NCBI GenBank assembly: GCA_014728035.1
Contig: WJMJ01000078.1
Coordinates: 145,036-209,035, forward strand
Direction: 5' to 3'
Source: Promethearchaeota archaeon
Lineage (GTDB): Archaea; Asgardarchaeota; Thorarchaeia; Thorarchaeales; Thorarchaeaceae
Length of the DNA: 64,000 nt
The notes below the pieces were generated by a model that saw only the letters and a list, made by a program, of their open reading frames with translations, was not told the origin of the DNA and ran no database searches. Numbering within the stretch: position 1 is the first letter of the stretch; every line of letters starts with the position of its first letter. A program made the position numbers and the translations under genes. Shown piece by piece: positions 21,961-42,772 of the stretch.

Positions 21961-23883
21961 GTGATCAAAATGAAAGGTGGAACCAGTAACAACCCATGGA
22001 AAGCTATGATCAATTATGTTGCTGAAATAATATCTGAAAAAACAGAACTAGAAAAAAGCGAGATTCTAGATAGTCTCGAAGTTCCACCCGATTCAAATCT
22101 TGGAGACCTTGCAACAACCGTTTCATTTCAACTAGCTAAAATCCAAAAGAGGAACCCTGCGGTCATTGCTGGAGAAATAGTTCAATATCTTGAAGAAGAG
22201 TCGGAAAAGAGTGGCTTCATCGACCATATTGAATCGAAAGGGCCCTACATCAATATCTTCTTTGACAAAGGATGGGTTTCTTCATTTGTGGTCTCATGTG
22301 TAGAGCATTTCAAATCAGACTATGGAAAATCCGATGAATATAAGGGATTAAGAGCATTAATCGAATTCCCTGCGGTTAATCCTTCAAAGCCATGGCACAT
22401 TGGGCATACTCGAAATGCAGTGATTGGGGACACATTGGGAAAAATTCTTGATGCGGTCGGTTATGAGGTTATTCGACTGGATTATATCAATGACCTGGGA
22501 CTCCAAATCGCACAGATTACATGGAAGTTAATGATGGACGGAGAACCCAATAGTATTGAAGAAAAGTACGACCATTTCATCGGAAAAATCTATGTTGATG
22601 TTCAAAAGGCCTTTGAAAAGTTTGATAATATTGAGAGAGAAGTTAGAGAAGTTGCAAGGAAACTGGAAGATCTCTCCAGTCCTGAATCAAAACAAAGTAT
22701 TGAGATGGTAACAAAGTGTGTAAGAGCTCAATATCAGACAGCATATAGACTAGGAATATATCATGATTATCAGGTCTGGGAAAGCCCTATAGCACATAGT
22801 GGGCTTCTGAAAATAGCAAAAGAGATGATGTTGCAGTGTGGAAATGTCGTCAAACTTCAAGAAGGAGAAAAAGCAGGATGCGTTGTTGCAAAGCTGGACT
22901 CTATGGACGAATTCAAGGGAATGAAAGATCCAAACAAAGTGTTATTCAGATCTGATGGAACAAGAACGTACACAGGAGCGGATATAGCACTACAGCTTTG
23001 GAAGTTCGGTGTCTTTGAGGATCCCTTTAGATATCAAATATTTGAAACGCAACCGAACGGAGAAAATGTTCTACGAACTTCGTTAGAGGGAGCGAAAGGA
23101 GGAATAGGAAAAGTAGATGTTGTATTCAATGTTATTGGAGCTGCACAAGCACATCCACAAAAATTAGTCTACTCAATCTTGGATTTACTAGGCTATGAGA
23201 AGGAAAGTAAAAATTCCCATCATATAGCATACGAGCTTGTAGGTCTAGAAGATGAAGATTTCTCAGGAAGAAAAGGAACATGGATAGGATATAGTTGCGA
23301 TGCGGTACTAGATAAAGCCAAAGAATTGGCTAAAGACGAGGTTTCAAAGAGAAATAAAGAGTGGAATACTGAACAAATTAGCAAGGTTGCTGAACAGGTA
23401 GCTGTAGGAGCACTAAGATATTTCATGCTAAATGCTTCACCAGACAGAAAGATCACCTTTCGCTGGAAAGATGCACTTGATTTCAATGGAGATGCAGCAC
23501 CATATCTGCAATACTCCTATGCTCGAGCAACACGAATTCTTGAGAAAGCTGAAAATAAAGAAATACCTGAACCGGACTGCTCACTCCTAACTGCTTTACA
23601 AGAGTATGAGCTGATTAAAGCTATCGCAAAACTTCCAGAGGAAATTCTTGAAGTTGCAAGAGGAATGAAGAAGAATGTATGGGGAACAGGATTCACATCA
23701 AACAGGATAACGAGCTATTGCTATAATCTTGCAACATTATTTAGTAAATTCTACGATTCATGCCCAGTCCTCAAGGCAAAACCAGAGATGATGGCAGCCA
23801 GACTTGAGTTGGTTCGAGTATTTCGAACTGTTATGTCCAATTGTTTAACGTTATTGGGAATCCCCATTATCGAACGAATGTAA
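21961..23883 (+). CDS. argS: Arginyl-tRNA synthetase
   Basis: VNPSKPWHIGH, DLGLQ, RSDGT.TY, FSGRKG, YLQYSYAR, C-terminal ERM. Confidence 0.95.
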   Translation: MIKMKGGTSNNPWKAMINYVAEIISEKTELEKSEILDSLEVPPDSNLGDLATTVSFQLAKIQKRNPAVIAGEIVQYLEEESEKSGFIDHIESKGPYINIFFDKGWVSSFVVSCVEHFKSDYGKSDEYKGLRALIEFPAVNPSKPWHIGHTRNAVIGDTLGKILDAVGYEVIRLDYINDLGLQIAQITWKLMMDGEPNSIEEKYDHFIGKIYVDVQKAFEKFDNIEREVREVARKLEDLSSPESKQSIEMVTKCVRAQYQTAYRLGIYHDYQVWESPIAHSGLLKIAKEMMLQCGNVVKLQEGEKAGCVVAKLDSMDEFKGMKDPNKVLFRSDGTRTYTGADIALQLWKFGVFEDPFRYQIFETQPNGENVLRTSLEGAKGGIGKVDVVFNVIGAAQAHPQKLVYSILDLLGYEKESKNSHHIAYELVGLEDEDFSGRKGTWIGYSCDAVLDKAKELAKDEVSKRNKEWNTEQISKVAEQVAVGALRYFMLNASPDRKITFRWKDALDFNGDAAPYLQYSYARATRILEKAENKEIPEPDCSLLTALQEYELIKAIAKLPEEILEVARGMKKNVWGTGFTSNRITSYCYNLATLFSKFYDSCPVLKAKPEMMAARLELVRVFRTVMSNCLTLLGIPIIERM

Positions 23884-23892
23884 TAGAAATCC

Positions 23893-25257
23893 CTAACCAG
23901 ATGTCACTCTTGCAGATTCTATTACTAGAGATGGACTTACAATAGATGATGCCTTACGTACGTCAGCTCCTATTCTATGAACTCTTTTGAGTAGGTCAAT
24001 CATATTGATTCCAATCAATGTGTTTTTGACTGGGTGGACTATTTCACCATTTTCAATGTAAAACCCCTCCATAATCATTGCACTAAGTTCTCCAGTTGTT
24101 AGATTAGGACTGTCAGCAGTGTATTGACATATAACTCCACGGTCTATTTCAGAAACTAAGTCATCAAGTGTGCCACGACCAGGAGAAACAATGAAGTTTG
24201 AAGAAGAGATGAAGGGAGTTCCAGAATAGGATGGACGCGCAGCATTTCCAGTGTTTTCAACCGAGCCTTTGTAAGCAGTGTATGAGTTGTGTAATAAGCT
24301 CTTCAGCACACCATTTTCGAGGATAGTTGTTTTTTGAGAGGGATATCCTTCAGCGTCATAAGGACGTGATCCGATTCCTTGATTTAGTATTGCATTGTCA
24401 ACTATATTCAATTTATCAGATGCAATCTCATCACCAAGATGATCCTGAATATATGACCGACCATATTGCACTTCTTCAGCATTTATCGCTGATGCAAATC
24501 CGGAACCAAGAACAGTTGCAACTGCCAAAGGGGTAAGAATGACAGGTAATTCTCCACCCTCTATTATTTTTCCACCTAAACCCGCAAGAGCTTGATTTGT
24601 AGCTTTTGAACCAACACGTTCGGGATCAATCTCACTCAATTTTCGAGTGATTTGATATTCATAACTTGATGTTTGGTCATCATTCATTTTTACAGTAGGA
24701 TAACTATAGACATAGAATGATGTTGAAGCTGTGAATTGTGCGATTCCAATAGAATTAGCAACAGCCCTTTGAGAATGAGACGCATTTAGAGTGGATTCAA
24801 CCGCAATATCTGCTTTTCCTGCTGCTTGAATTGATGAATCCACTGTACGCATGATTATATCCGCTGCATAATCGGGCTCAATATCACGGATTTCGGAGTC
24901 AAACAAACCATCAACAACAGGATATTTACCAGAGTAGGATGGCAAACTAACAAACTCAGGATCAGGAATAGCAGCTTTCGCAATTTTTACTGCTCTTTCT
25001 GCAATTTCCAATATGTCTGAATCTTGTATAGTAGTCACATATGCGAATCCGATAGCCTTGTTGACAATTGCTCTTATTCCACATCCAGCATCTCGAATCT
25101 CAGACGCAGTCTTGATTGTATTATTTTCTACTTCGATAGAGAAGGATTTAGATGATCCAATATATGCTTCTGCTTGTTCTGCACCATGGCTCTCGGCTTT
25201 CCTTACAGCCTTTTCAGCTATTTCGAGTAATTCTTCTGTCAACCTACATGCCTCCAA
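23893..25257 (-). CDS. pmbA: TldE/PmbA family protein
   Basis: GIRAI, SRPYDAEG, TGNA.R, TGELS; no HExxH; paired with tldD. Confidence 0.9.
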   Translation of the reverse strand: MEACRLTEELLEIAEKAVRKAESHGAEQAEAYIGSSKSFSIEVENNTIKTASEIRDAGCGIRAIVNKAIGFAYVTTIQDSDILEIAERAVKIAKAAIPDPEFVSLPSYSGKYPVVDGLFDSEIRDIEPDYAADIIMRTVDSSIQAAGKADIAVESTLNASHSQRAVANSIGIAQFTASTSFYVYSYPTVKMNDDQTSSYEYQITRKLSEIDPERVGSKATNQALAGLGGKIIEGGELPVILTPLAVATVLGSGFASAINAEEVQYGRSYIQDHLGDEIASDKLNIVDNAILNQGIGSRPYDAEGYPSQKTTILENGVLKSLLHNSYTAYKGSVENTGNAARPSYSGTPFISSSNFIVSPGRGTLDDLVSEIDRGVICQYTADSPNLTTGELSAMIMEGFYIENGEIVHPVKNTLIGINMIDLLKRVHRIGADVRKASSIVSPSLVIESARVTSG

Positions 25258-26629
25258 CGGGAATCTGACGTATTCTCACATGTGGTCCTCCGGACATTTC
25301 AGGAACGGATTGGCCATTTTTGCCACATGATCCCGCAGCTAACTCGAAATCACTCCCAACAGCATCTATTTTATCCAGAATATCAAGTATTTGTCCAGCG
25401 AGTGAAACATCTCTAACCATTTCATCTAGTTCTCCATCTTCAATAATATATCCATGACTCGCTTGAAATACAAACTGGCCCTTTGCAGTCTCGGTGTATC
25501 CATAATTGAAGTCACAAAGGAGAATTCCATTCTTAGTTTCAGAGATAATTTCGTCAGCATCCCATGTCCCCTTTTCCATGAAAGTGTTACTCATCCTTGG
25601 AATAGGAACATCCATGAAGGACTGAGCCCGTGCAGATCCATTAGCGAACATTTCAAGGCGGGATGAGGTTTCTAATGAGTGTAAAAGCTCGGTGAGAACA
25701 CCATCTTTTACTAATTCTCGTTTTTTCGTTTTAGTACCTTCCCAATCATACTCAAATGAACCGCGCATTTCAGGTAACGTTGGATCATCACTGATATTAA
25801 GATGGTCAGGACCCACTTGCTCACCAATTTTGTCTTCGAGTATTGTTGCTTGTGCAAGAAATCCATCAGCCTCACAAGCATGCCCAAAAGCTTCATGGAC
25901 CATCACACCATTTAACACAGGATCGATTACTACATCATAGATACCGCCGGTTGCGGCCACAGAGTCCAGAAGCTCGATAGCTATTCTTGCGGACTCGGTC
26001 CCAATATTTTGTGGTCGCTCTAATTCAATCTTCTCGAATCCACCAACTACACCATAAGAGCGAGATGCCCTTTGTCTATTAGTGCCATCTTTAGCTGTAG
26101 TTACACTAACAATACGAGGAAGGGAGTTTTCTCGATACACCGAAGTGCCAAAAGAGTTCAAGACGTAGAGATCGGTCCAAAGCTCACCGTAAACAGTTCT
26201 TGTATTCTGGATGCGTTCATCATATGATCTTGCTTGTTCATCAATCATCTTAGCAAATTCGATTTTATCTTCAAAGGCAACATCTCGAAAATCCTTTTTC
26301 GGTTTAAAATACACTTTGTCACAGTAAGTTTTTCCATGAATATCAAAAGATTCTTTCACTCGTGGTTTAGTTGCCAAGGCTAATTTAGCAACAGATTCTC
26401 CAGTTTCTCTTAATGCGGATGGAGATAGATCGGTTGTTTGTGCGAACGCCCACGCACCACCTACAAAAGCTCTAATTCCAGCACCTTTTAGATGCGATGA
26501 GAGTGCGCGTTTTGTTATTCCGTCGGTCATCTCGATAATCGTAGAGATAGAACTTTCGATTCGAATGTCAGCGAAAGAAGCTCCTGCTTGTAATGCAGCA
26601 TTCACAGCAATGTTTGCTAAATCTTCCAT
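25244..26629 (-). CDS. tldD: TldD family metalloprotease
   Basis: HEAFGHACEAD, YDWEG, PRMSNT, CGKNGQ, GGPH. Confidence 0.93.
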   Translation of the reverse strand: MEDLANIAVNAALQAGASFADIRIESSISTIIEMTDGITKRALSSHLKGAGIRAFVGGAWAFAQTTDLSPSALRETGESVAKLALATKPRVKESFDIHGKTYCDKVYFKPKKDFRDVAFEDKIEFAKMIDEQARSYDERIQNTRTVYGELWTDLYVLNSFGTSVYRENSLPRIVSVTTAKDGTNRQRASRSYGVVGGFEKIELERPQNIGTESARIAIELLDSVAATGGIYDVVIDPVLNGVMVHEAFGHACEADGFLAQATILEDKIGEQVGPDHLNISDDPTLPEMRGSFEYDWEGTKTKKRELVKDGVLTELLHSLETSSRLEMFANGSARAQSFMDVPIPRMSNTFMEKGTWDADEIISETKNGILLCDFNYGYTETAKGQFVFQASHGYIIEDGELDEMVRDVSLAGQILDILDKIDAVGSDFELAAGSCGKNGQSVPEMSGGPHVRIRQIPVGGM

Positions 26630-26805: not shown

Positions 26806-28353
26806 ATGACACAAGATATGGCTAGGCAAACATGCAATATATGTAACGATACAAAAGCTTCGCATCTCTGTGAAGGATGTGGAGAACTTCTTTGTCTTGA
26901 GTGTCAAGGAACAAAGTCTAGTATATTCTATGTTTGCAATGAGTGTCATCATGTTCTAGGAACACCAAAACCTGGCGAAACATTTACTAATTGTCCTGAC
27001 TGTGATTCAGAAAATCTGGGTGAAGGAAAACGGGTCGAGAATATTTGTCCTCGTTGCCATTCCACAAAGACCGTTTTGCTAGAAGAAAAGAAACGTCATC
27101 TGACCCAGAATATCCGTCATGCCATCCAGAGCTTGTCATATGGACATTCAAAACTGAGAGAGTTCCAAAGCAAATTTACGAGTGCGAAACATTTGTTGGT
27201 ATCACTGCGCATGGCGAATTTTCTCCACTATCATTGGTTAGAAACCAAGATGGAAGAAATCCATGATGAAATTCCTGCAATCAAGACAAGAATTGCCAAC
27301 CAAGCTGAGATAGTTGCAAGACAAATGGCTGCTGAAACTAAAGGTCTGATTGATTACAATGACTGGGAACCAGCACAATTTCCATTCATTGAGGGTGTCA
27401 CCAATCGAGTGAATGAATTAGGAAAGCAATACAAGAGAGAGGTGGAGGATTCACTTCAGCAGATTCAACTTAAGCTAGATGAGCTCGATACCCAGCTTGA
27501 GGGCTTGAATTACTATCGAAATGAGTTTGCCAGTTTTTATGAGTTTGCAGAGCTATCGGTAAATGAACTACCAGTATCTGCATTTCCTGATGTTAAATTA
27601 ACTGGTAGTGACTTTGTGAAAGCAGACAAATCTACTGGAACCCTATTCTTCACTAACAAGAGAGTCGTATTCATTGCTGAAACTGGTCTTGTAAGAAAGA
27701 AAACAGATGTGGTCTTCGACTACCCATTAATCTATTTGAATTCAATTGGAGAAGATGGAAGAATAAGAAAACGAGTTGTATTGAAATTCAAACAGGGAGA
27801 AATCAAAATCACGTGCTGTGAACAAACAGAAAGCGTATTACCAGATTACATTGAGATTGCTAGAAAATTTGACAAGTATATCCAAACAGACCTCCAAAGG
27901 GTGAGAAAGCTTGAACAAGCAGACCTCAATATCAGTGAAGTCCGAATGAAAATAGAGAATCTCGTTTATTCACTCTTAGCTCCCACCAGACGAGAAAAAG
28001 AAACAGACTATCGAGAGAAACAAAGATATATTCGCCCTCATTTAGATAGAAGAAGAGTTGTTAATCCAAGCCAATACGATGATGAGAAAGGATTTCGAGA
28101 ACACCTCGAGAGAACAATAGAACAACGTTCTCATGAGAGATATTCATATCCAGAAAAATCAGAGATTCATGGATTAGAAAAAAGTCTTCAAGATTTAGAG
28201 TTTGCAATGCGTGACGCCATCCATCTACTGAGAAACGGAAGACTGATCCCTGAAGAGTTTATTAGAAGATACAAGCGTTTAGTGAGAGATTCCTATTTCA
28301 CCAAGAAACGAATTAATGAAATGTCACGAGACCACCAAAAATATAGATGGTAG
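26806..28353 (+). CDS. ESCRT-associated protein: six CxxC Zn motifs, coiled coil, PH/GRAM-like domain, C-terminal steadiness-box-like helices
   Basis: CNIC, CEGC, CLEC, CNEC, CPDC, CPRC; GTLFFTNKRVVF...FDYPL; LLRNGRLIPEEFIRRYKRL resembles the Vps23/TSG101 SB. Confidence 0.7.
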   Translation: MTQDMARQTCNICNDTKASHLCEGCGELLCLECQGTKSSIFYVCNECHHVLGTPKPGETFTNCPDCDSENLGEGKRVENICPRCHSTKTVLLEEKKRHLTQNIRHAIQSLSYGHSKLREFQSKFTSAKHLLVSLRMANFLHYHWLETKMEEIHDEIPAIKTRIANQAEIVARQMAAETKGLIDYNDWEPAQFPFIEGVTNRVNELGKQYKREVEDSLQQIQLKLDELDTQLEGLNYYRNEFASFYEFAELSVNELPVSAFPDVKLTGSDFVKADKSTGTLFFTNKRVVFIAETGLVRKKTDVVFDYPLIYLNSIGEDGRIRKRVVLKFKQGEIKITCCEQTESVLPDYIEIARKFDKYIQTDLQRVRKLEQADLNISEVRMKIENLVYSLLAPTRREKETDYREKQRYIRPHLDRRRVVNPSQYDDEKGFREHLERTIEQRSHERYSYPEKSEIHGLEKSLQDLEFAMRDAIHLLRNGRLIPEEFIRRYKRLVRDSYFTKKRINEMSRDHQKYRW

Positions 28354-28354
28354 A

Positions 28355-28999
28355 CTACATTCCAAGTTCTTTTTCAAGCGACTTGATCTCGTCTTCCAGC
28401 TCTTCGGTTTCCGATACTGGTCCTGAAGGTGTAGGTGCTTCTCCAATTCCTGCTTCTCGGTCGATTTCTGCCATTGCAGATGCAAGGTCTTCTGAGGTGA
28501 CTCTGCTATCACCTGTTGAATCAAATGCTTCTTCAGTTATACTACTCTCAATTTCAAATTCTTCAAGTCGTCTAGAGATATCATCAATATTCTCAACTAC
28601 TTTTGTAGTATCAGTAGCATCTCCGAGAAGACCCAGAATCTTGGAAACTCGTTCTACGATTTTTGTTGCTTGCGCAGTAGTTTGAGCCCGAGTGATATGT
28701 GCAAGAATTTTCAAAAGCTGTAATCTTGACTTATCTATTGATAGAGCGTATCGCCTAAACCGGACCATTTCAGTTGCGTACATACGATAAGCTTCATTCC
28801 GGTTTTCTTTTCTTGCTCTTATAGCTCGAGCTTTGACATCACGTTCTTCTTTCTCCAATTTGTTACGTTGGCGCTCAAGTTGTTTCGTCATAATACGAAG
28901 CTGACTAGTTACCTCTGCTATATCGGGTTTCTTCTTGCCCCATGAAAATGCCTTTTTCAGTGCGTCCAACAATATCACCAATGGAAAAGAATATTCCAA
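28355..28999 (-). CDS. ESCRT-III subunit (Snf7 family, Vps2/24/46-like); true start probably a few codons downstream
   Basis: Basic helical hairpin QLERQRNKLEKEE...RMYATEMVRFRR; acidic C-half; MIM1-like tail LEDEIKSL; divergent from vps4. Confidence 0.88.
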   Translation of the reverse strand: MEYSFPLVILLDALKKAFSWGKKKPDIAEVTSQLRIMTKQLERQRNKLEKEERDVKARAIRARKENRNEAYRMYATEMVRFRRYALSIDKSRLQLLKILAHITRAQTTAQATKIVERVSKILGLLGDATDTTKVVENIDDISRRLEEFEIESSITEEAFDSTGDSRVTSEDLASAMAEIDREAGIGEAPTPSGPVSETEELEDEIKSLEKELGM

Positions 29000-29115: not shown

Positions 29116-30342
29116 ATGTCAGGAAATGGTGGCGATCGAGTAGATAAAGGTCTAAAAGCACTCCTTGACAAGGCAATAGACCTTGATAAACGAGGAATGA
29201 ACAAAGAAGCATGCGAATATTATCTCAAATCAAGTAAGATTCTACTCAAACTTTCAAATTCCGCATCACTTCCATCCATCCGCAAACACTATTTTGATCG
29301 AGCTCAAGAGTGTGTTGATCGAGTTCGATACCTTTCAGGAATAAAGAAGAAATCAAAGGGCCCAACTGAAGGACTTAGTACGATACCAAAGAGACATCCA
29401 TTACCTGAAGAAACTGCTGAGAAAGAATCCAAAGATGCAGAGAGAGAAGAAGATACGGATGCACAAAGGCTCAAAGACATGATTGCTGACACAATAATTA
29501 CAGAACGGCCAAACATCAAGATGTCTGAAATTGCAGGACTTGACGAAGCAAAACAAGCAATCCAAGATGCAATTATTGCTCCAGCAAAACACCCAGAGTT
29601 ATTCAAAGGGAAATCACGCCAACCTTGGAGAGGTATCTTGTTTTATGGACCAGCTGGTTGTGGGAAGACCCTAATTGCTAAAGCGGTAGCAGCTGAAGTT
29701 AATGCCACCTTTTTCAACGTGTCAGCCGCTAATATTGTCAGCAAGTGGCTTGGGGAATCTGAAAGATTGATTATGACCTTGTTTGATCTTGCTAGAAAGA
29801 ATCAACCAGCAATCATCTTCATGGATGAACTAGATTCGGTGGGAGTGGCAAGGTCTGGTGATGACGTTGGGGGAGAACGAAGACTAAAAACACAATTGCT
29901 AACTGAACTCCAAGGACTATCTAGTAAACAAGATGAACGAATTACAGTCATAGGTGCAACTAACTTACCTTGGGAGATTGATTTTGCTTTACGTTCACGG
30001 TTTGAAAAGAGAATTCATGTGCCATTGCCTAATAAAGAGGCACGAACGGAAATTTTCAAAATTCATATGGAAGATATCGATATTGATACAGATGTCGATT
30101 TCAAAGAACTCGCAGATTTAAGTGAGGGATACAGTGGAAGAGATATCAGCGTAGTCTGTCGAGAAGCCGCAATGGAGCCCATTAGGGATCTTCAGAAGAC
30201 TGGGAGAATGGATGACGAAGGTGAAATTCTATCACTTAGACCAGTTTCTAGAAATGATTTTCTCCAAGCAATAGACAACATTCGACCAGCAACATCTCCA
30301 GAGGATATCAAGAAGTATATTGATTGGGCGGAGGGCTCTTAA
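29116..30342 (+). CDS. vps4: Vps4 AAA ATPase with N-terminal MIT domain
   Basis: MIT-like KAIDLD...EACEYY; PWRGILFYGPAGCGKT, VSKWLGESE, FMDELD, GATNLPW, RFEKRI, GYSG.DI. Confidence 0.92.
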   Translation: MSGNGGDRVDKGLKALLDKAIDLDKRGMNKEACEYYLKSSKILLKLSNSASLPSIRKHYFDRAQECVDRVRYLSGIKKKSKGPTEGLSTIPKRHPLPEETAEKESKDAEREEDTDAQRLKDMIADTIITERPNIKMSEIAGLDEAKQAIQDAIIAPAKHPELFKGKSRQPWRGILFYGPAGCGKTLIAKAVAAEVNATFFNVSAANIVSKWLGESERLIMTLFDLARKNQPAIIFMDELDSVGVARSGDDVGGERRLKTQLLTELQGLSSKQDERITVIGATNLPWEIDFALRSRFEKRIHVPLPNKEARTEIFKIHMEDIDIDTDVDFKELADLSEGYSGRDISVVCREAAMEPIRDLQKTGRMDDEGEILSLRPVSRNDFLQAIDNIRPATSPEDIKKYIDWAEGS

Positions 30343-30345
30343 ATC

Positions 30346-31071
30346 GTGAGCACAAGAGAACGAACACGGGAGAAGAAAGAGAAGACCAAATCAAGAACTA
30401 CAGAGAAAAAGTCAGAGTCTATTGATAAGAAGACCGAATCTGGAGAGAACGAGAGAACACCTAGAGAAGTCGCCAAATCTGTTATAGGACGAACAGCTGA
30501 AAAAACCACCCAACACAGTAGCTTAGAATCGGGAAAAACTACTCAAGTCACCGATTCCATTCAACCTCTACTTCCATTATGGGGAAACCGAGAAGAGAGT
30601 GAGTGGATGTATCACATTCCAGATAGAGGTGATGACAAGAAAATGTGGGCACAGGAGTGGGCGGATTTTCTTCTTGAATGGACACAGGATAAAGTCGTAC
30701 ACATAATTTCAGTTACTATGTTCCTCAAGGAATCACCCTTTAACGAAATTCTAGGAAAATCTGATGCTTTCAAAATGATTGGAGATGCACTAGTAGAAAA
30801 GGAAATGGCAGATTGGACAAGTAGAAAGAAAAGGCAACTTCGAATCTATTGGAGGCCATTAGAGGAGTGGGCGGATATCATTTATCAATGGGCTCTGGAA
30901 ACTGGGCAAATCCGATTAGATGTCAAATCATTAATCATTCAAAACGCGGATCAAGATTTTGCTTCTCTGCCTGAGAAAGACCTGTATATAGTCATGGAAC
31001 TGATGGTCGAAAAAGAATTTGCAGAATGGGTAGATAAGAAAAGAGGGGCTATCAAAGTCAACCTGATTTAA
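30346..31071 (+). CDS. vps25: ESCRT-II subunit Vps25-like
   Basis: EWADFLLEW; IYWRPLEEWADIIYQWA matches the Vps25 WRxxEEWxxxIYxW motif. Confidence 0.85.
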   Translation: MSTRERTREKKEKTKSRTTEKKSESIDKKTESGENERTPREVAKSVIGRTAEKTTQHSSLESGKTTQVTDSIQPLLPLWGNREESEWMYHIPDRGDDKKMWAQEWADFLLEWTQDKVVHIISVTMFLKESPFNEILGKSDAFKMIGDALVEKEMADWTSRKKRQLRIYWRPLEEWADIIYQWALETGQIRLDVKSLIIQNADQDFASLPEKDLYIVMELMVEKEFAEWVDKKRGAIKVNLI

Positions 31072-31076
31072 CTAGT

Positions 31077-31829
31077 TTACATGGGATTCTGACCACTCTC
31101 AGATTCATCACGAGCTCGTAATCCAGGGAACCAATATCGCCCACCTGTGGAAAATCTTCGATCGGCTACGGCCATCCCGGCTTCAACTAAACTGCCAAGT
31201 ACTTGTCTAGCATGGTCTTCTGACCACTTTAGACGCATCATAACTTCTTCAATTGATGTGAATCCTTTAGAAGCAGCTAGGTTTATCACGTCCGATTGGT
31301 CTCTTCGTAATTCAAGCGGCCTAAGCTCTACAACTTTCACTCCACATCTCAATGTACGGATTCCAGGAATAAGACCATGTTCAGCAACCATATTCACAGC
31401 TTGAATTACATCATTGTATGAAACTGATTTCAACTGAGGAATCTTTCGAACGACTTCAACAATAAGCTCAGCGAGCCCCATTAGACCTTTTGATGAATTT
31501 GCAGTTGCAACATCTAATACAGCAAGTCCAATAAAATCATAGTATTCTTCTTCCGACATTCCTTCGGGCAAGGTACTCTGAATAGAGGATACGTTAAGCA
31601 TTCTTAGAGCCTCTGGAAAATCTCGAGAGAGCATTTCACCATCAAGAAATGATTGAATGTCAACTCCAAATTGTCTAAGCTCTTTTATGTAATTCCGAAC
31701 TTCGTAAACGAGTGCTTCTGACTCTCTCTGATATGACCTGATGTCGACAACGCCATGATCGAACATCTTTTTGAGTTGGTCGAGTGTTGCTATTGAGGCG
31801 TATAGCTCAGATTGAAGTCGATTCTGCAT
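31077..31829 (-). CDS. ESCRT-II Vps22/Vps36 (EAP30)-like protein with N-terminal Vps28-like segment
   Basis: YYDFIG..VLD...GLMGL.EL, VS..DVIQAV, ELRRDQ.DVI, WS...A..VL..LV..GMAV.D, YWFP; N-terminal ELYASIATLDQL. Confidence 0.83.
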   Translation of the reverse strand: MQNRLQSELYASIATLDQLKKMFDHGVVDIRSYQRESEALVYEVRNYIKELRQFGVDIQSFLDGEMLSRDFPEALRMLNVSSIQSTLPEGMSEEEYYDFIGLAVLDVATANSSKGLMGLAELIVEVVRKIPQLKSVSYNDVIQAVNMVAEHGLIPGIRTLRCGVKVVELRPLELRRDQSDVINLAASKGFTSIEEVMMRLKWSEDHARQVLGSLVEAGMAVADRRFSTGGRYWFPGLRARDESESGQNPM

Positions 31830-32743: not shown

Positions 32744-33868
32744 ATGTATAGTCGATACCAAATTATGGTAATCTCTATCTGTCTTGCTCTTGCCGCGCCA
32801 GGGTTTGTGACGGCGTTTGCTACGCCGATTGCAAATCCTATTGTTGTTACTTTTCAAGACACACATGCGGAGAGAGCTGCATTGGATACATTCCAAGGAG
32901 AAATATCTAATGCAATAACTGTAGAATATGGAAGCATCCAATATAACCTAATGAAAATGCGATCCATTGGACCAATGGTCTTTATTGGGCATGGAAATGA
33001 CAATGGAATCGAGGATAAAGCTGGAGTTGTATCAGCAGAGCAGATGCAGACTGAAATTCAGACTACAGCGGCACCTCAAATATTTCTTCTAGCCTGTGAT
33101 TCAGATGAAATTGCATCAATGGATAAGTCGGGTAGAACACATGGATATAACTACATGGTAGATGCAGAGCTAGCTGCATATGATGCGGTCATTCGAATCA
33201 AACTATTCTATGGACAGATTGAATCAGCTATAGACACATTCAACACATTCAGAGAAGTTCTTACAAGCAAATTCACCGGAGAACGAGAGATTCTTTGGAT
33301 GGGGCTATCTATGCTGGATCCAGGTGATCCTACTGGTGGAGGTACACCTGAACCCGTATTTAGCACACGAGAAAAACTCAATGCGATTAGAGTCTTTGTT
33401 TTAGGTTGTGTTTTTGCACTGATTGGTTTTGGAATCGAGGTAGCAAAAGACAAACTAATCGAAGCAGTAACAATTGAGTGTGCAGGAATTACAATGCAAT
33501 CCAGTAAACTTGTGCAAGTCTTCAATTATGTGAACGACTATGGTATTGGTACACTTGGACAAGCAGTGAATGGTATCTATGGTGGTTGGGGCGATATGGC
33601 AACCGACTGGTTAGATACATCAGTGAATTGTCTGAAAACATGGACTGACAGAATGACTGCTGGTGAATGGGCAGCTTTCATTGCAATTATTGCATTAGAA
33701 ATCGTTGTTGTAATTCTCACAGCCGGTTCAGAAGCATGGGTCAGACTTGTTGCAGGTATCGGGTTTGCTGCACTTGAAGCTGCCACAATAGCCATCTGTG
33801 ATGCACACGATTCAAACTATTATCCAGCTTCAACTTTGATGGATGCCATCTCTGGTTGGGACACATAA
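32744..33868 (+). CDS. Secreted protein: signal peptide, clan-CD peptidase-like domain, hydrophobic C-terminal domain
   Basis: Hydrophobic N-terminus ending AFA; VFIGHG and IFLLACDS; linker DPGDPTGGGTPEP; three hydrophobic helices. Confidence 0.7.
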   Translation: MYSRYQIMVISICLALAAPGFVTAFATPIANPIVVTFQDTHAERAALDTFQGEISNAITVEYGSIQYNLMKMRSIGPMVFIGHGNDNGIEDKAGVVSAEQMQTEIQTTAAPQIFLLACDSDEIASMDKSGRTHGYNYMVDAELAAYDAVIRIKLFYGQIESAIDTFNTFREVLTSKFTGEREILWMGLSMLDPGDPTGGGTPEPVFSTREKLNAIRVFVLGCVFALIGFGIEVAKDKLIEAVTIECAGITMQSSKLVQVFNYVNDYGIGTLGQAVNGIYGGWGDMATDWLDTSVNCLKTWTDRMTAGEWAAFIAIIALEIVVVILTAGSEAWVRLVAGIGFAALEAATIAICDAHDSNYYPASTLMDAISGWDT

Positions 33869-33877
33869 AATTTTGAG

Positions 33878-33899
33878 AATCGGGGTGCATCCCCCGATT
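33878..33899. terminator. Hairpin between convergent genes
   Basis: AATCGGGG-tgcatc-CCCCGATT perfect 8-bp stem, followed by TCATTTCTTTTTT. Confidence 0.65.
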
Positions 33900-33917
33900 T
33901 CATTTCTTTTTTGAAAG

Positions 33918-35276
33918 CTATGGAGTGATTCTATCTCTATCACGGGGGAGTAGTGTTGCTTCACGAATATTATCAATTCCTAACAACTGCATGGTAAGTC
34001 GTTCTACACCAAGACCTAATCCACCATGAGGTGGTGCCCCATATTTGAAAGGTTCCAGATAAAAGCCAAAATTATCAACATTGTATCCTTTAGCCTTGAA
34101 TCGGTCCACTAGTAAATCATAGAGATGAATTCGTTGACCTCCAGTTGTAATTTCCATTCCCTTGTAGGTTAAATCAAAGCTTTCTGTCATGCCCTCATCA
34201 GTAGTACTAGGCATTGTGTAGGCGGGTCGTAACTCTAGGGGATAATGGGTTATGAATACCATATCAGTTCCGAATTTTTCGGGAAATACTTCTCCAAGAA
34301 TCTTCTCACTCTCAGGGTCAAGGTCATCAGTAATGCTTAGGTCTTTCCCTTCCTGATTCACCAAATCGATAGCCTCAGCATATTTTATCCGTTTGAAGGG
34401 CACATCAGGGACTTCAAGATTTACACCCAAGGTTTCCAAGGCAGAAGCTAGTAATTCTTTGGTCTTCATAAATGTATAATGGAGCATGTTTTCCTCCATC
34501 CGCATTACATCTTCAACACCACTAATCCAAGACATCTCAAAGTCAAAGGAAGTGTACTCATTTATGTGACGACGGGTGTTATGCTTCTCAGCTCGGAAAA
34601 CAGGTGCAATCTCAAAGACTCTACCAAAGCCAGCAAGAAGCATCAATTGTTTGTAAAATTGTGGACTCTGGGCTAGATACGCAGGTCTGTCAAAATACTT
34701 GACTTCAAAGAGGTTTGCTCCACCCTCAGTAGCCTCTGCGACAATTTTAGGTGTATGAATCTCTACAAACTCATGCTTCTCCAGATATTCTCGTGCAAAA
34801 CGTACAAGCGAATGTTGTATCCGAAAGATTGCATTTATGGTAGGCTTTCTCAGGTCAAGAATTCGAAAGTTCAAACGTGTATCAAGGTCAATATCCACCT
34901 TTCCTTCTACCACATCAATAGGTAACCTTTCAGCAGTATTGAGAATGCGAATAGAAGTAGGGATAACCTCAGCTCCAGCAGCGACTTGTTTTGCTTCCAC
35001 AACTTCCCCAGCTACGGAAACTGCATATTCAGGTTTGAGTTGTTCTGCTATCTGAAACAGCTCTGCAGGAACCTTCTTCTGATGTATGAAAATCTGGCAT
35101 GTACTACGTTCGTCTCTAAGAATGAGAAACTTGAGCTTTCCTTTATCTCTAAGAATGTGAACCCAACCCATCAATGTGACTTTTTCGCCAATATTGTCGG
35201 GATTAATCTCGGATGTGAAATGTGTTCTGCGCATGTCTCCAATAGGCACAACACCTGCATTTGTGTAGAAGTCCAT
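33918..35276 (-). CDS. aspS: Aspartyl-tRNA synthetase, archaeal type
   Basis: [51 protein letters not shown]. Confidence 0.96.
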
Positions 35277-42031: not shown

Positions 42032-42367
42032 TTAAGCTAATACCATCAAGATGGCACCAATAATGATGAGAATTCCAGGAAGGCCGCCACCAAAGATGTA
42101 AACAAGTATACCAAGGATGAGAATAATCACCCAGTTGTTATCGAACTTGAGCATTGGAATGCTAACTACACCACTCGTAGCAAGTACAGCAAAAGATAAG
42201 ATAATGAGAATTATTGCAGTAAAAATACCCAAAACGCTCAGGTCAATACCCGGTAATCCAAAAGTAAAAGGCATATTAAGGAGAGCAAGAATACCCCAAA
42301 CTACTCCAAGAATTCCACCAAGCAATACTAGTAGATTTGCCAGTTTTTTAATGTCAGATTTTGCCAT
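42032..42367 (-). CDS. Small hydrophobic membrane protein (paralog of the upstream gene)
   Basis: About 4 TM helices, LLGGI motif. Confidence 0.75.
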   Translation of the reverse strand: MAKSDIKKLANLLVLLGGILGVVWGILALLNMPFTFGLPGIDLSVLGIFTAIILIILSFAVLATSGVVSIPMLKFDNNWVIILILGILVYIFGGGLPGILIIIGAILMVLA

Positions 42368-42403
42368 TATTGTTTCCTCGTTTTTCTACGTTTCAATATG
42401 CGT

Positions 42404-42772
42404 CTAAGACTTGGTTATAATTAGAAGCCCTGCTATTAGAATCATTAGCCCTGCAAGAGTTCCTACATTCATAAGCCAACCAATTATGTCAAAGGACAAT
42501 CCACGACCAACTAAGATAATTGCAACAAATCCAATTATTGTCAGTAGTAATCCATTTCTGTGTATCATCCAATAGACAAAACCACAGGCATCAAACGCAA
42601 GAATTGCCATCACTAAGAGTGCAATTCCTAAAACTAATGTTACAACTCCGTCAAAAATTCCGTTAAGTATCTGGTTTAATCCATTGATAATATCGTTAAG
42701 AGCAAATATGATCAATACAATTCCACCAAGAAGTGTATAACCTTGTGCAGCTCCTTCTGCTTTACAACCCAT
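42404..42772 (-). CDS. Small hydrophobic membrane protein
   Basis: About 4 TM helices, LLGGI motif. Confidence 0.75.
   Translation of the reverse strand: MGCKAEGAAQGYTLLGGIVLIIFALNDIINGLNQILNGIFDGVVTLVLGIALLVMAILAFDACGFVYWMIHRNGLLLTIIGFVAIILVGRGLSFDIIGWLMNVGTLAGLMILIAGLLIITKS

Follow-up and report, generated by a model that had tools for sequence, protein, structure and literature searches.

A Thorarchaeota ortholog of Znr_CC_PH_SB, a putative upstream adaptor of the ESCRT pathway, encoded within an ESCRT gene cluster

Here we describe a gene of the Znr_CC_PH_SB family in a 64,000-nucleotide stretch of a Promethearchaeota archaeon genome of the Thorarchaeaceae (assembly GCA_014728035.1, contig WJMJ01000078.1, positions 145,036 to 209,035); we refer to this whole stretch as the window and number coordinates from its first letter. 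[quoted passage not shown] Neither is new: a 2024 publication had already described the family and given it this reading. Makarova et al. (2024, mBio 15:e00335-24; PMC10936438) described Znr_CC_PH_SB (also Znr_PH_CC_SB) as asCOG cog.011556, in which three Zn ribbons are combined with a coiled coil, a PH domain, and a steadiness box, and they expected the PH domain to be membrane-associated; they found the family in several Asgard lineages and in no eukaryotes, and regarded it as likely ancestral and likely an ESCRT-I component. A first-pass annotation of the window had independently called the gene a candidate ubiquitin-independent ESCRT-I subunit; what it observed is confirmed, and its interpretation is supported.

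Assignment to Znr_CC_PH_SB and distribution of the family

The open reading frame (ORF) begins with ATG at 26806, ends with a stop codon at 28351-28353, and encodes 515 amino acids (aa). Its parts are as follows.

26806..28353, + strand: Znr_CC_PH_SB ortholog, whole gene (ORF and translation; single copy in the genome)
26833..26946, + strand: zinc module 1, residues 10-47, four CxxC pairs with B-box-like spacing (Cys kept at ≥90%; sub-threshold Pfam matches)
26992..27057, + strand: zinc module 2, residues 63-84, a CxxC-x14-CxxC Zn ribbon (conserved Cys; beta hairpins in the model)
27079..27531, + strand: helical region, residues 92-242, predicted antiparallel three-helix bundle (AF2 pLDDT 89-95)
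27532..27918, + strand: PH domain of GRAM/GLUE type, residues 243-371, including a C-terminal helix at 339-371 (VIA, Foldseek, and Pfam in relatives)
27919..28143, + strand: linker, residues 372-446, a short helix followed by a charged, low-confidence stretch of variable length (pLDDT)
28144..28347, + strand: steadiness box, residues 447-514, a Vps23-type helical hairpin (family profile, VIA, and pLDDT 84-96)

In Table S2 of PMC10936438, a C69 dipeptidase gene lies on one side of the Lokiarchaeum GC14_75 member and MetE on the other, and an ESCRT-III gene follows. A 662-aa homolog in locus L034 has the same neighbors (C69 dipeptidase, MetE, and Snf7), and we used the 660-720 aa forms as a proxy for the published Lokiarchaeum GC14_75 protein, As_004-p_01543. 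The window protein aligns with these forms collinearly over its full length (tblastn, 2e-35; profile, 1e-20 to 1e-27). Because the neighbors of the L034 homolog match and the alignment is full length, we file the window gene as the Thorarchaeota ortholog of cog.011556. Every part of the published family is present: zinc units, long helices, a PH domain, a steadiness box, and linkage to ESCRT genes. Nothing essential differs from Znr_CC_PH_SB, with which the window protein shares its four parts, its restriction to Asgard archaea, its position adjoining an ESCRT-III gene, and its published reading; it represents a short Thorarchaeota form (about 515-525 aa) with a diverged hairpin. The HHpred table of Makarova et al. 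holds no row for the steadiness box of Znr_CC_PH_SB; our profile A2, Vps23_core, and 2f6m_C results, given below, supply it.

We found 168 close homologs among 5.8 billion proteins. Identity to the window protein is 47-76% among the 120 matches listed, which cover ≥71% of the query and in most cases its full length; the named homologs among these matches are almost all labeled Thorarchaeota and annotated "hypothetical." Single-sequence searches with the whole protein returned nothing below E 0.1 in the PDB and nothing meaningful in NCBIfam. A family profile made from 30 homologs retrieved 121 representatives at 50% clustering and matched 203 of 301 sampled Asgard genomes. In the family to which the window belongs, 73 of 76 genomes gave a match, and in the family with the 660-720 aa forms, 64 of 68 did. 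Several sampled Asgard families yielded no match to this profile (for example, 0 of 28 and 0 of 21 genomes). Distant members carry the labels Promethearchaeota, Hodarchaeota, Jordarchaeia, and "Asgardarchaeia" bins.

The steadiness box

We read the C-terminal hairpin as a Vps23-type steadiness box, accepting this on a cross-family profile and a structural model taken together. This part of the protein includes AMRDAIHLLRNGRLIPEEFIRRYKRLVRDSYF at residues 467-498, and the hairpin, with the consensus LE..K.S.E.TL..L...F..G.I..E.Y.K....L...LY, is conserved in every family examined but one. Profile A2, built from the last 110 residues of 20 diverse family members, matched the yeast Vps23 core in the PDB (2p22_A, E 2.9e-5; 2f66_A, 6.9e-5; 2caz_A, 2.4e-4) and human TSG101 (6vme_B, E 4.2e-4), with Vps37B far behind (E 0.59). 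The Pfam model Vps23_core likewise matched 16 of the 20 relatives, the best at 6.9e-7. In an AF2 model of the whole protein built on a 30-sequence alignment (mean pLDDT 79.7), the hairpin comprises helices 451-476 and 482-514 at pLDDT 84-96. When placed on Vps23-C of the Vps23-C:Vps28-N crystal (2f6m_C), the model hairpin superimposes over 63 of 63 residues with a root mean square deviation (rmsd) of 1.4 Å (VIA, Z 10.2). The likeness to the Vps23/TSG101 steadiness box that was first noticed in the C-terminal sequence is thus borne out by profile A2, by 16 of 20 relatives, and by the 2f6m_C fit.

Past the hairpin (window 28330-28350), most Thorarchaeota homologs close with a conserved aromatic residue (…RW, …LW), and the 660-720 aa forms terminate in FD..(R/K)(R/K)Y(Y/F)S; this conserved tail may be a short terminal binding motif.

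Linkage to ESCRT genes

The genes that follow the Znr_CC_PH_SB gene in the window belong to the ESCRT system.

28355..28999, - strand: ESCRT-III gene of the Snf7 family, CHMP1/2/3-like, convergent (Pfam Snf7, 1.2e-9)
29116..30342, + strand: Vps4, with MIT, AAA, and Vps4_C domains (Pfam)
30346..31071, + strand: Vps25-like ESCRT-II subunit (Pfam ESCRT-II PF05871, 3.9e-13)
31077..31829, - strand: Vps22 winged helices fused to a Vps28-N hairpin (Pfam EAP30, 6.8e-14, and VPS28)

A single base, 28354, separates the stop codons of the Znr_CC_PH_SB gene and the convergent Snf7 ORF, in agreement with the 1-bp spacing read in the first-pass annotation. That annotation also made its proposal hinge on ESCRT linkage in relatives. 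We surveyed twenty loci from twelve Asgard families (denoted f plus a number). In f1, f2, f9, f12, f15, f16, f18, f19, and f21, the gene lies 0.2-8 kb from an ESCRT-III gene or from the complete Vps4-Vps25-Vps22 cluster; in the single f27 genome examined, it was not linked.

A candidate docking partner on Vps22

Residues 7-81 of the Vps22 protein match Pfam VPS28 (E 0.0026). A profile of this protein, A4, matched SNF8 in the PDB at 4e-19, and its N-terminus matched Vps28-N of 2f6m_B at E 0.096. When A2 was compared with A4 by hhalign, the hairpins aligned in register over residues 1-61 of A4 (probability 58%, E 9.6e-5). Makarova et al. reported a 99% HHpred match of residues 1-70 of a Thorarchaeota Vps22 to PF03997 (Table S3 of PMC10936438). 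No further VPS28 match and no Vps28 C-terminal domain were detected in the genome, so that the sole Vps28-N-type hairpin found there is the one on Vps22, four genes from Znr_CC_PH_SB. Vps23-C and Vps28-N, which were crystallized together, thus have counterparts in two genes of this locus, and we infer that the steadiness box pairs with the Vps28-N hairpin of the neighboring Vps22.

Two other proteins of this genome carry candidate hairpins of related type. P0363 (L043:1468-1857, - strand; G000:C103, about 42241-42630) is a free-standing protein of 130 aa whose C-terminus, SGTISPEEFDEKYRILQDEL, aligns with the steadiness-box profile at an hhalign probability of 84.5% (E 7e-6). From its sequence, P0363 is a candidate for the third hairpin, in a Vps37-like role, of an ESCRT-I-type headpiece. 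P0362 (L042:1501-2142, - strand; G000:C37, about 133020-133661) has 214 aa and adjoins a gene for an Arf-family small GTPase; its N-terminal helices lead into a long repeat linker rich in Pro, Glu, and Lys, and its C-terminal hairpin is weakly steadiness-box/CdvA-like (hhalign 47.6%; Pfam CdvA, 6.4e-4). P0362 may correspond to the Thorarchaeota "BAR-SB" protein of Table S3 of Makarova et al. Either P0363 or P0362 could be the third member of a headpiece-like bundle.

A 601-aa protein of family f21 (L028:9401-11203, + strand, in G053:C138; also in G044:C95 and G061:C86) bears on how the module is attached. It has six CxxC pairs, helices, and a PH domain; it lacks the steadiness box and is fused instead to EAP30/Vps22-like winged helices (PF04157, 1.8e-11; PF11605 GLUE, 1.8e-4; in the PDB, Vps22/SNF8 at about 1e-5 and Vps36 at 3e-3). 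Also encoded in the f21 locus are a plain Vps22, a Vps28 of full length, a protein with a ubiquitin E2 variant (UEV)-type domain, a longin-Arf GTPase, and an Snf7 gene. As a Rosetta-stone fusion, the f21 protein supports the view that the Zn-CC-PH module acts on an ESCRT-II core. We found no mention of this fusion in Hatano et al. 2022 or Makarova et al. 2024.

In the account that we favor, the window protein would probably link membranes or cargo to the ESCRT machinery independently of ubiquitin. The PH domain with its basic loops, perhaps together with the zinc fingers, would select a membrane patch or a cargo. The steadiness box would then enter a headpiece-like bundle with the N-terminal, Vps28-N-type hairpin of the neighboring Vps22, possibly joined by a third, free-standing hairpin protein, and the site would be passed to Vps22/Vps25, ESCRT-III, and Vps4. 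ESCRT-I and ESCRT-II would thus form one assembly in this lineage, in which the contribution made by the GLUE domain in Vps36 would come in trans from the window protein.

A more far-reaching reading, which we hold to be possible though somewhat short of even odds, is that in ubiquitin-less Thorarchaeota the protein is no ESCRT-I subunit as eukaryotes have it; it would serve a merged ESCRT-I/II complex as a Vps36-like arm that can detach. Its hairpin would pair with that of Vps22 as above, perhaps with a free-standing hairpin protein as a stand-in for Vps37, the PH domain and zinc fingers would choose membrane or cargo that carries no ubiquitin tag, and the f21 protein, which lies beside a separate Vps22, would be a hard-wired version of the same complex.

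A second account keeps the domains as described and has the steadiness box homodimerize or pair with the free-standing hairpins, not with Vps22, in a separate ESCRT-I-like complex that reaches ESCRT-II/III by another route. Precedents exist: an Odinarchaeota Vps23 dimer binds one Vps28, and yeast two-hybrid hints suggest that Thorarchaeota ESCRT-I/II contacts ESCRT-III while bypassing Vps25 (both Hatano et al. 2022); the genome also offers P0363 and the weaker P0362 as partners. The f21 fusion, which hard-wires the module to a Vps22-like core, and the placement on Vps22 of the only Vps28-N-type hairpin found in the genome argue against it, and we consider this account unlikely.

The PH domain and linker

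The beta-rich domain had been likened to PH-like GRAM/GLUE domains from its motifs, GTLFFTNKRVVF at residues 278-289 and FDYPLIYL at 304-311, and structure comparisons agree. By VIA, the top match is the PH-GRAM domain of MTMR2 (Z 12.5, rmsd 2.8, 107 residues aligned), followed by Lam6 (Z 12.0) and the GLUE domain of EAP45 (2hth_B; Z 11.3, rmsd 3.7, 107 aligned); the EAP45 GLUE score is level with those of other PH-GRAM domains. Foldseek likewise matched the GLUE domains of yeast Vps36 and mouse EAP45 (TMt 0.57-0.65). Among 21 diverse relatives, Pfam detected bPH_3 in 11, GRAM in 6, and the Vps36 GLUE model PF11605 in 3; PF11605 gave no match on the window protein itself. Basic residues in the loops of the domain (K272, K275, R297-K299, and R319-R323) are conserved in A1, an alignment of 30 Thorarchaeota homologs.

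Tagged cargo offers another possible ligand. The PH domain might bind protein, as GLUE and PTB domains do, and read a tag or cargo such as a ubiquitin-like modifier of the SAMP/Urm1 type, which would make the pathway tag-dependent and not lipid-driven. High in the list of structural matches (Z 10-11) stand PTB domains and the GLUE domain of EAP45, whose structure was solved with ubiquitin, and PH folds are versatile in function. Set against this, the best matches are the lipid-binding PH-GRAM domains of MTMR2 and Lam6, the loops retain the basic residues listed above, and no ubiquitin was found in the genome; a tag reader is therefore improbable in our judgment.

The linker between the PH domain and the steadiness box has pLDDT values of <50 at residues 397-426 and 441-449. 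Its length differs greatly among families; in the 660-720 aa forms it is Pro/Asn/Gln-rich and about 200 aa longer.

The zinc module and helical region

CxxC pairs lie at C10/13, C22/25, C30/33, C44/47, C63/66, and C81/84 of the translation. The first eight Cys are spaced C-x2-C-x8-C-x2-C-x4-C-x2-C-x10-C-x2-C, which resembles a B-box, so that the six motifs and the B-box-like spacing of the first three (C-x2-C-x8-C-x2-C-x4-C-x2-C), pointed out at first inspection, stand and rest on conserved residues. All 12 Cys are invariant or ≥90% conserved both in A1 and in two cross-family alignments, A3 and A5, of 21-27 members from at least 12 Asgard families; the pattern is therefore not due to chance. 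C63, C66, C81, and C84 are invariant in A1 and A5, and C63 is nearly invariant in A3. In the AF2 model, the zinc region (residues 10-91) consists of short beta hairpins, among them 71-80 and 89-91.

Below the Pfam cut-offs, the window protein matches ANCHR-like B-box (E 0.0025) and zf-B_box (E 0.021) with 15-18 bits, for cut-offs of 24-27. Among the 21 diverse relatives, zf-B_box matches 10 and ANCHR-like B-box 6, the latter reaching 6.5e-6 in relative P0134. Zinc module 1 probably binds two Zn, and the sequence predicts that the N-terminus as a whole is a three-zinc module made of a B-box-like unit and a Zn ribbon. With the N-terminal half alone, Foldseek returned no match that reached E 0.001, and for the Zn module it gave nothing but weak Zn-ribbon matches from the MCM N-terminal domain. 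Since these structure searches were unproductive, the fold class of the Zn module is assigned from the Cys spacing and the sub-threshold Pfam matches.

The long coiled coil that was initially read from the sequence is recovered as an AF2-predicted three-helix bundle (residues 92-242): helices 92-136, 143-177, and 189-242 pack antiparallel with a pLDDT of about 90, and a second model of residues 1-245 alone has a pLDDT of 87.8. Compared with 48,161 chains, this part yielded generic helical-bundle matches only (best Z 9.9), with the V domains of ALIX/Bro1 and BAR domains appearing within the noise.

B-box matches, although sub-threshold, followed by long helices could also describe a TRIM-like B-box/coiled-coil regulator, and DH-PH tandems lead the Foldseek list (E 7e-5), as would befit an exchange factor for Asgard small GTPases; in either case adjacency to ESCRT genes would be coincidental. 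These identities were already disfavored and strike us as highly improbable: the protein has no RING match, its B-box, unlike that of TRIM-type proteins, stays below threshold, its helical part matches only generic bundles, its linkage to ESCRT genes is kept in many families, and it carries a Vps23-type hairpin.

The DH-PH RhoGEF candidates were also compared by structure and rejected; their alignments have rmsd values of 13-23 Å and TM scores of 0.18-0.27, and the PH part alone fits.

Ubiquitin and UEV

No ubiquitin (PF00240) and no UEV (PF05743) were detected in this 97.9% complete genome, and UEV was found in 0 of the 76 genomes of the window's family, in agreement with the work of Hatano et al. 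(2022) and of Lu et al. (2023). Across the 301 sampled genomes, five larger families (f1, f7, f9, f12, and f24) have Znr_CC_PH_SB and no UEV match, others (f3, f4, f5, and f22 among them) have UEV and no Znr_CC_PH_SB, and nine sampled Asgard families have both; the UEV Pfam model may overlook diverged UEV proteins.

Because nine sampled families hold both, Znr_CC_PH_SB is not a Thorarchaeota-specific substitute for UEV: it is an old, separate component that is retained where UEV-Vps23 is missing. The first-pass annotation had the zinc-finger and PH modules stand "in place of" the ubiquitin-binding UEV. That wording is right in part: neither ubiquitin nor UEV was detected in this genome, but elsewhere Znr_CC_PH_SB and UEV proteins coexist. 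Replacement of UEV by Znr_CC_PH_SB as a general rule is accordingly rejected.

Comparison with known ESCRT adaptors

The window protein works like parts of Vps23 and of Vps36 and is a member of neither, because it has no UEV and no stalk continuous with the hairpin, as in Vps23, and no winged helices, as in Vps36. With Vps23/TSG101 and Asgard UEV-Vps23 it shares the hairpin, which is homologous by profile and fits at 1.4 Å, and the expected partner, a Vps28-N hairpin. Unlike Vps23/TSG101, it has no UEV or UQ_con match and has zinc fingers and a PH domain; its long helices precede the PH domain, and a disordered linker precedes the hairpin, so that no continuous stalk is formed.

Like Vps36/EAP45, the protein combines a GLUE/GRAM-type PH domain with zinc fingers and would sit on a core that contains Vps22; in f21 relatives, the same module is joined covalently to EAP30-type winged helices. 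The window protein, however, gives no EAP30 match and lacks these winged helices, and its attachment would be noncovalent, through the hairpins; its Zn units are an N-terminal B-box-like unit and a ribbon, whereas those of Vps36/EAP45 are NZF fingers inserted in the PH domain. CdvA of Thermoproteota likewise binds membranes and recruits archaeal ESCRT-III from upstream. The hairpin of CdvA and the steadiness box are related, a link drawn both by Makarova et al. 2024 (PMC10936438) and by Lu et al. 2023, and Pfam CdvA weakly matches 4 of 20 relatives of the window protein; but CdvA has a PRC-barrel, binds CdvB through a C-terminal peptide, and has no Zn or PH modules.

Several points weigh against the role that we propose for the window protein as an ESCRT adaptor docked on Vps22. 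The putative function of the family is read from sequence and models. Pfam Vps23_core matched neither the diverged C-terminus of the window protein nor any other protein genome-wide, and because Pfam did not recognize the protein's own sequence, the steadiness-box call needed the cross-family profile and the model. A Z of 10 by itself is weak, given how common helical hairpins are as folds. Unlike the stalk of Vps23, the helical region does not run on into the steadiness box, and the geometry differs from that of ESCRT-I. P0363 could be the true partner, with P0362 a weaker candidate. Lipid binding by the PH domain is suggested by analogy, and PH/GLUE/PTB folds bind proteins too. Finally, ESCRT linkage is absent in the single f27 genome examined.

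The family is a candidate starter of ESCRT assembly in Asgard lineages without ubiquitin/UEV, namely, Thorarchaeota and, by the UEV search, the family with the 660-720 aa forms. It also bears on the pre-eukaryotic origin of the ESCRT-I headpiece and of the membrane-binding arm of Vps36. These implications were already laid out from sequence analysis in 2024.

Other features of the locus and genome

Synteny of the flanks, 21961-26629 and 32744-35276, is kept in two relatives, L036 and L037; both have genes for ArgRS and two TldD/PmbA proteins on one side and for AspRS on the other. The ORF at 32744-33868, which is without a Pfam match, has a counterpart in only one of the two (L036, 68% identity).

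The genome holds two ESCRT-III genes: the one at 28355-28999 (- strand) in the window and an unlinked one at G000:C37:92410-93075 (L039:1456-2121). The product of the convergent gene is nearest CHMP1a, CHMP1b, and CHMP2a (Vps2/24/46 class) by its best PDB matches, and the product of the unlinked gene is nearest Heimdallarchaeota ESCRT-IIIB and Vps20/32/60-like proteins.

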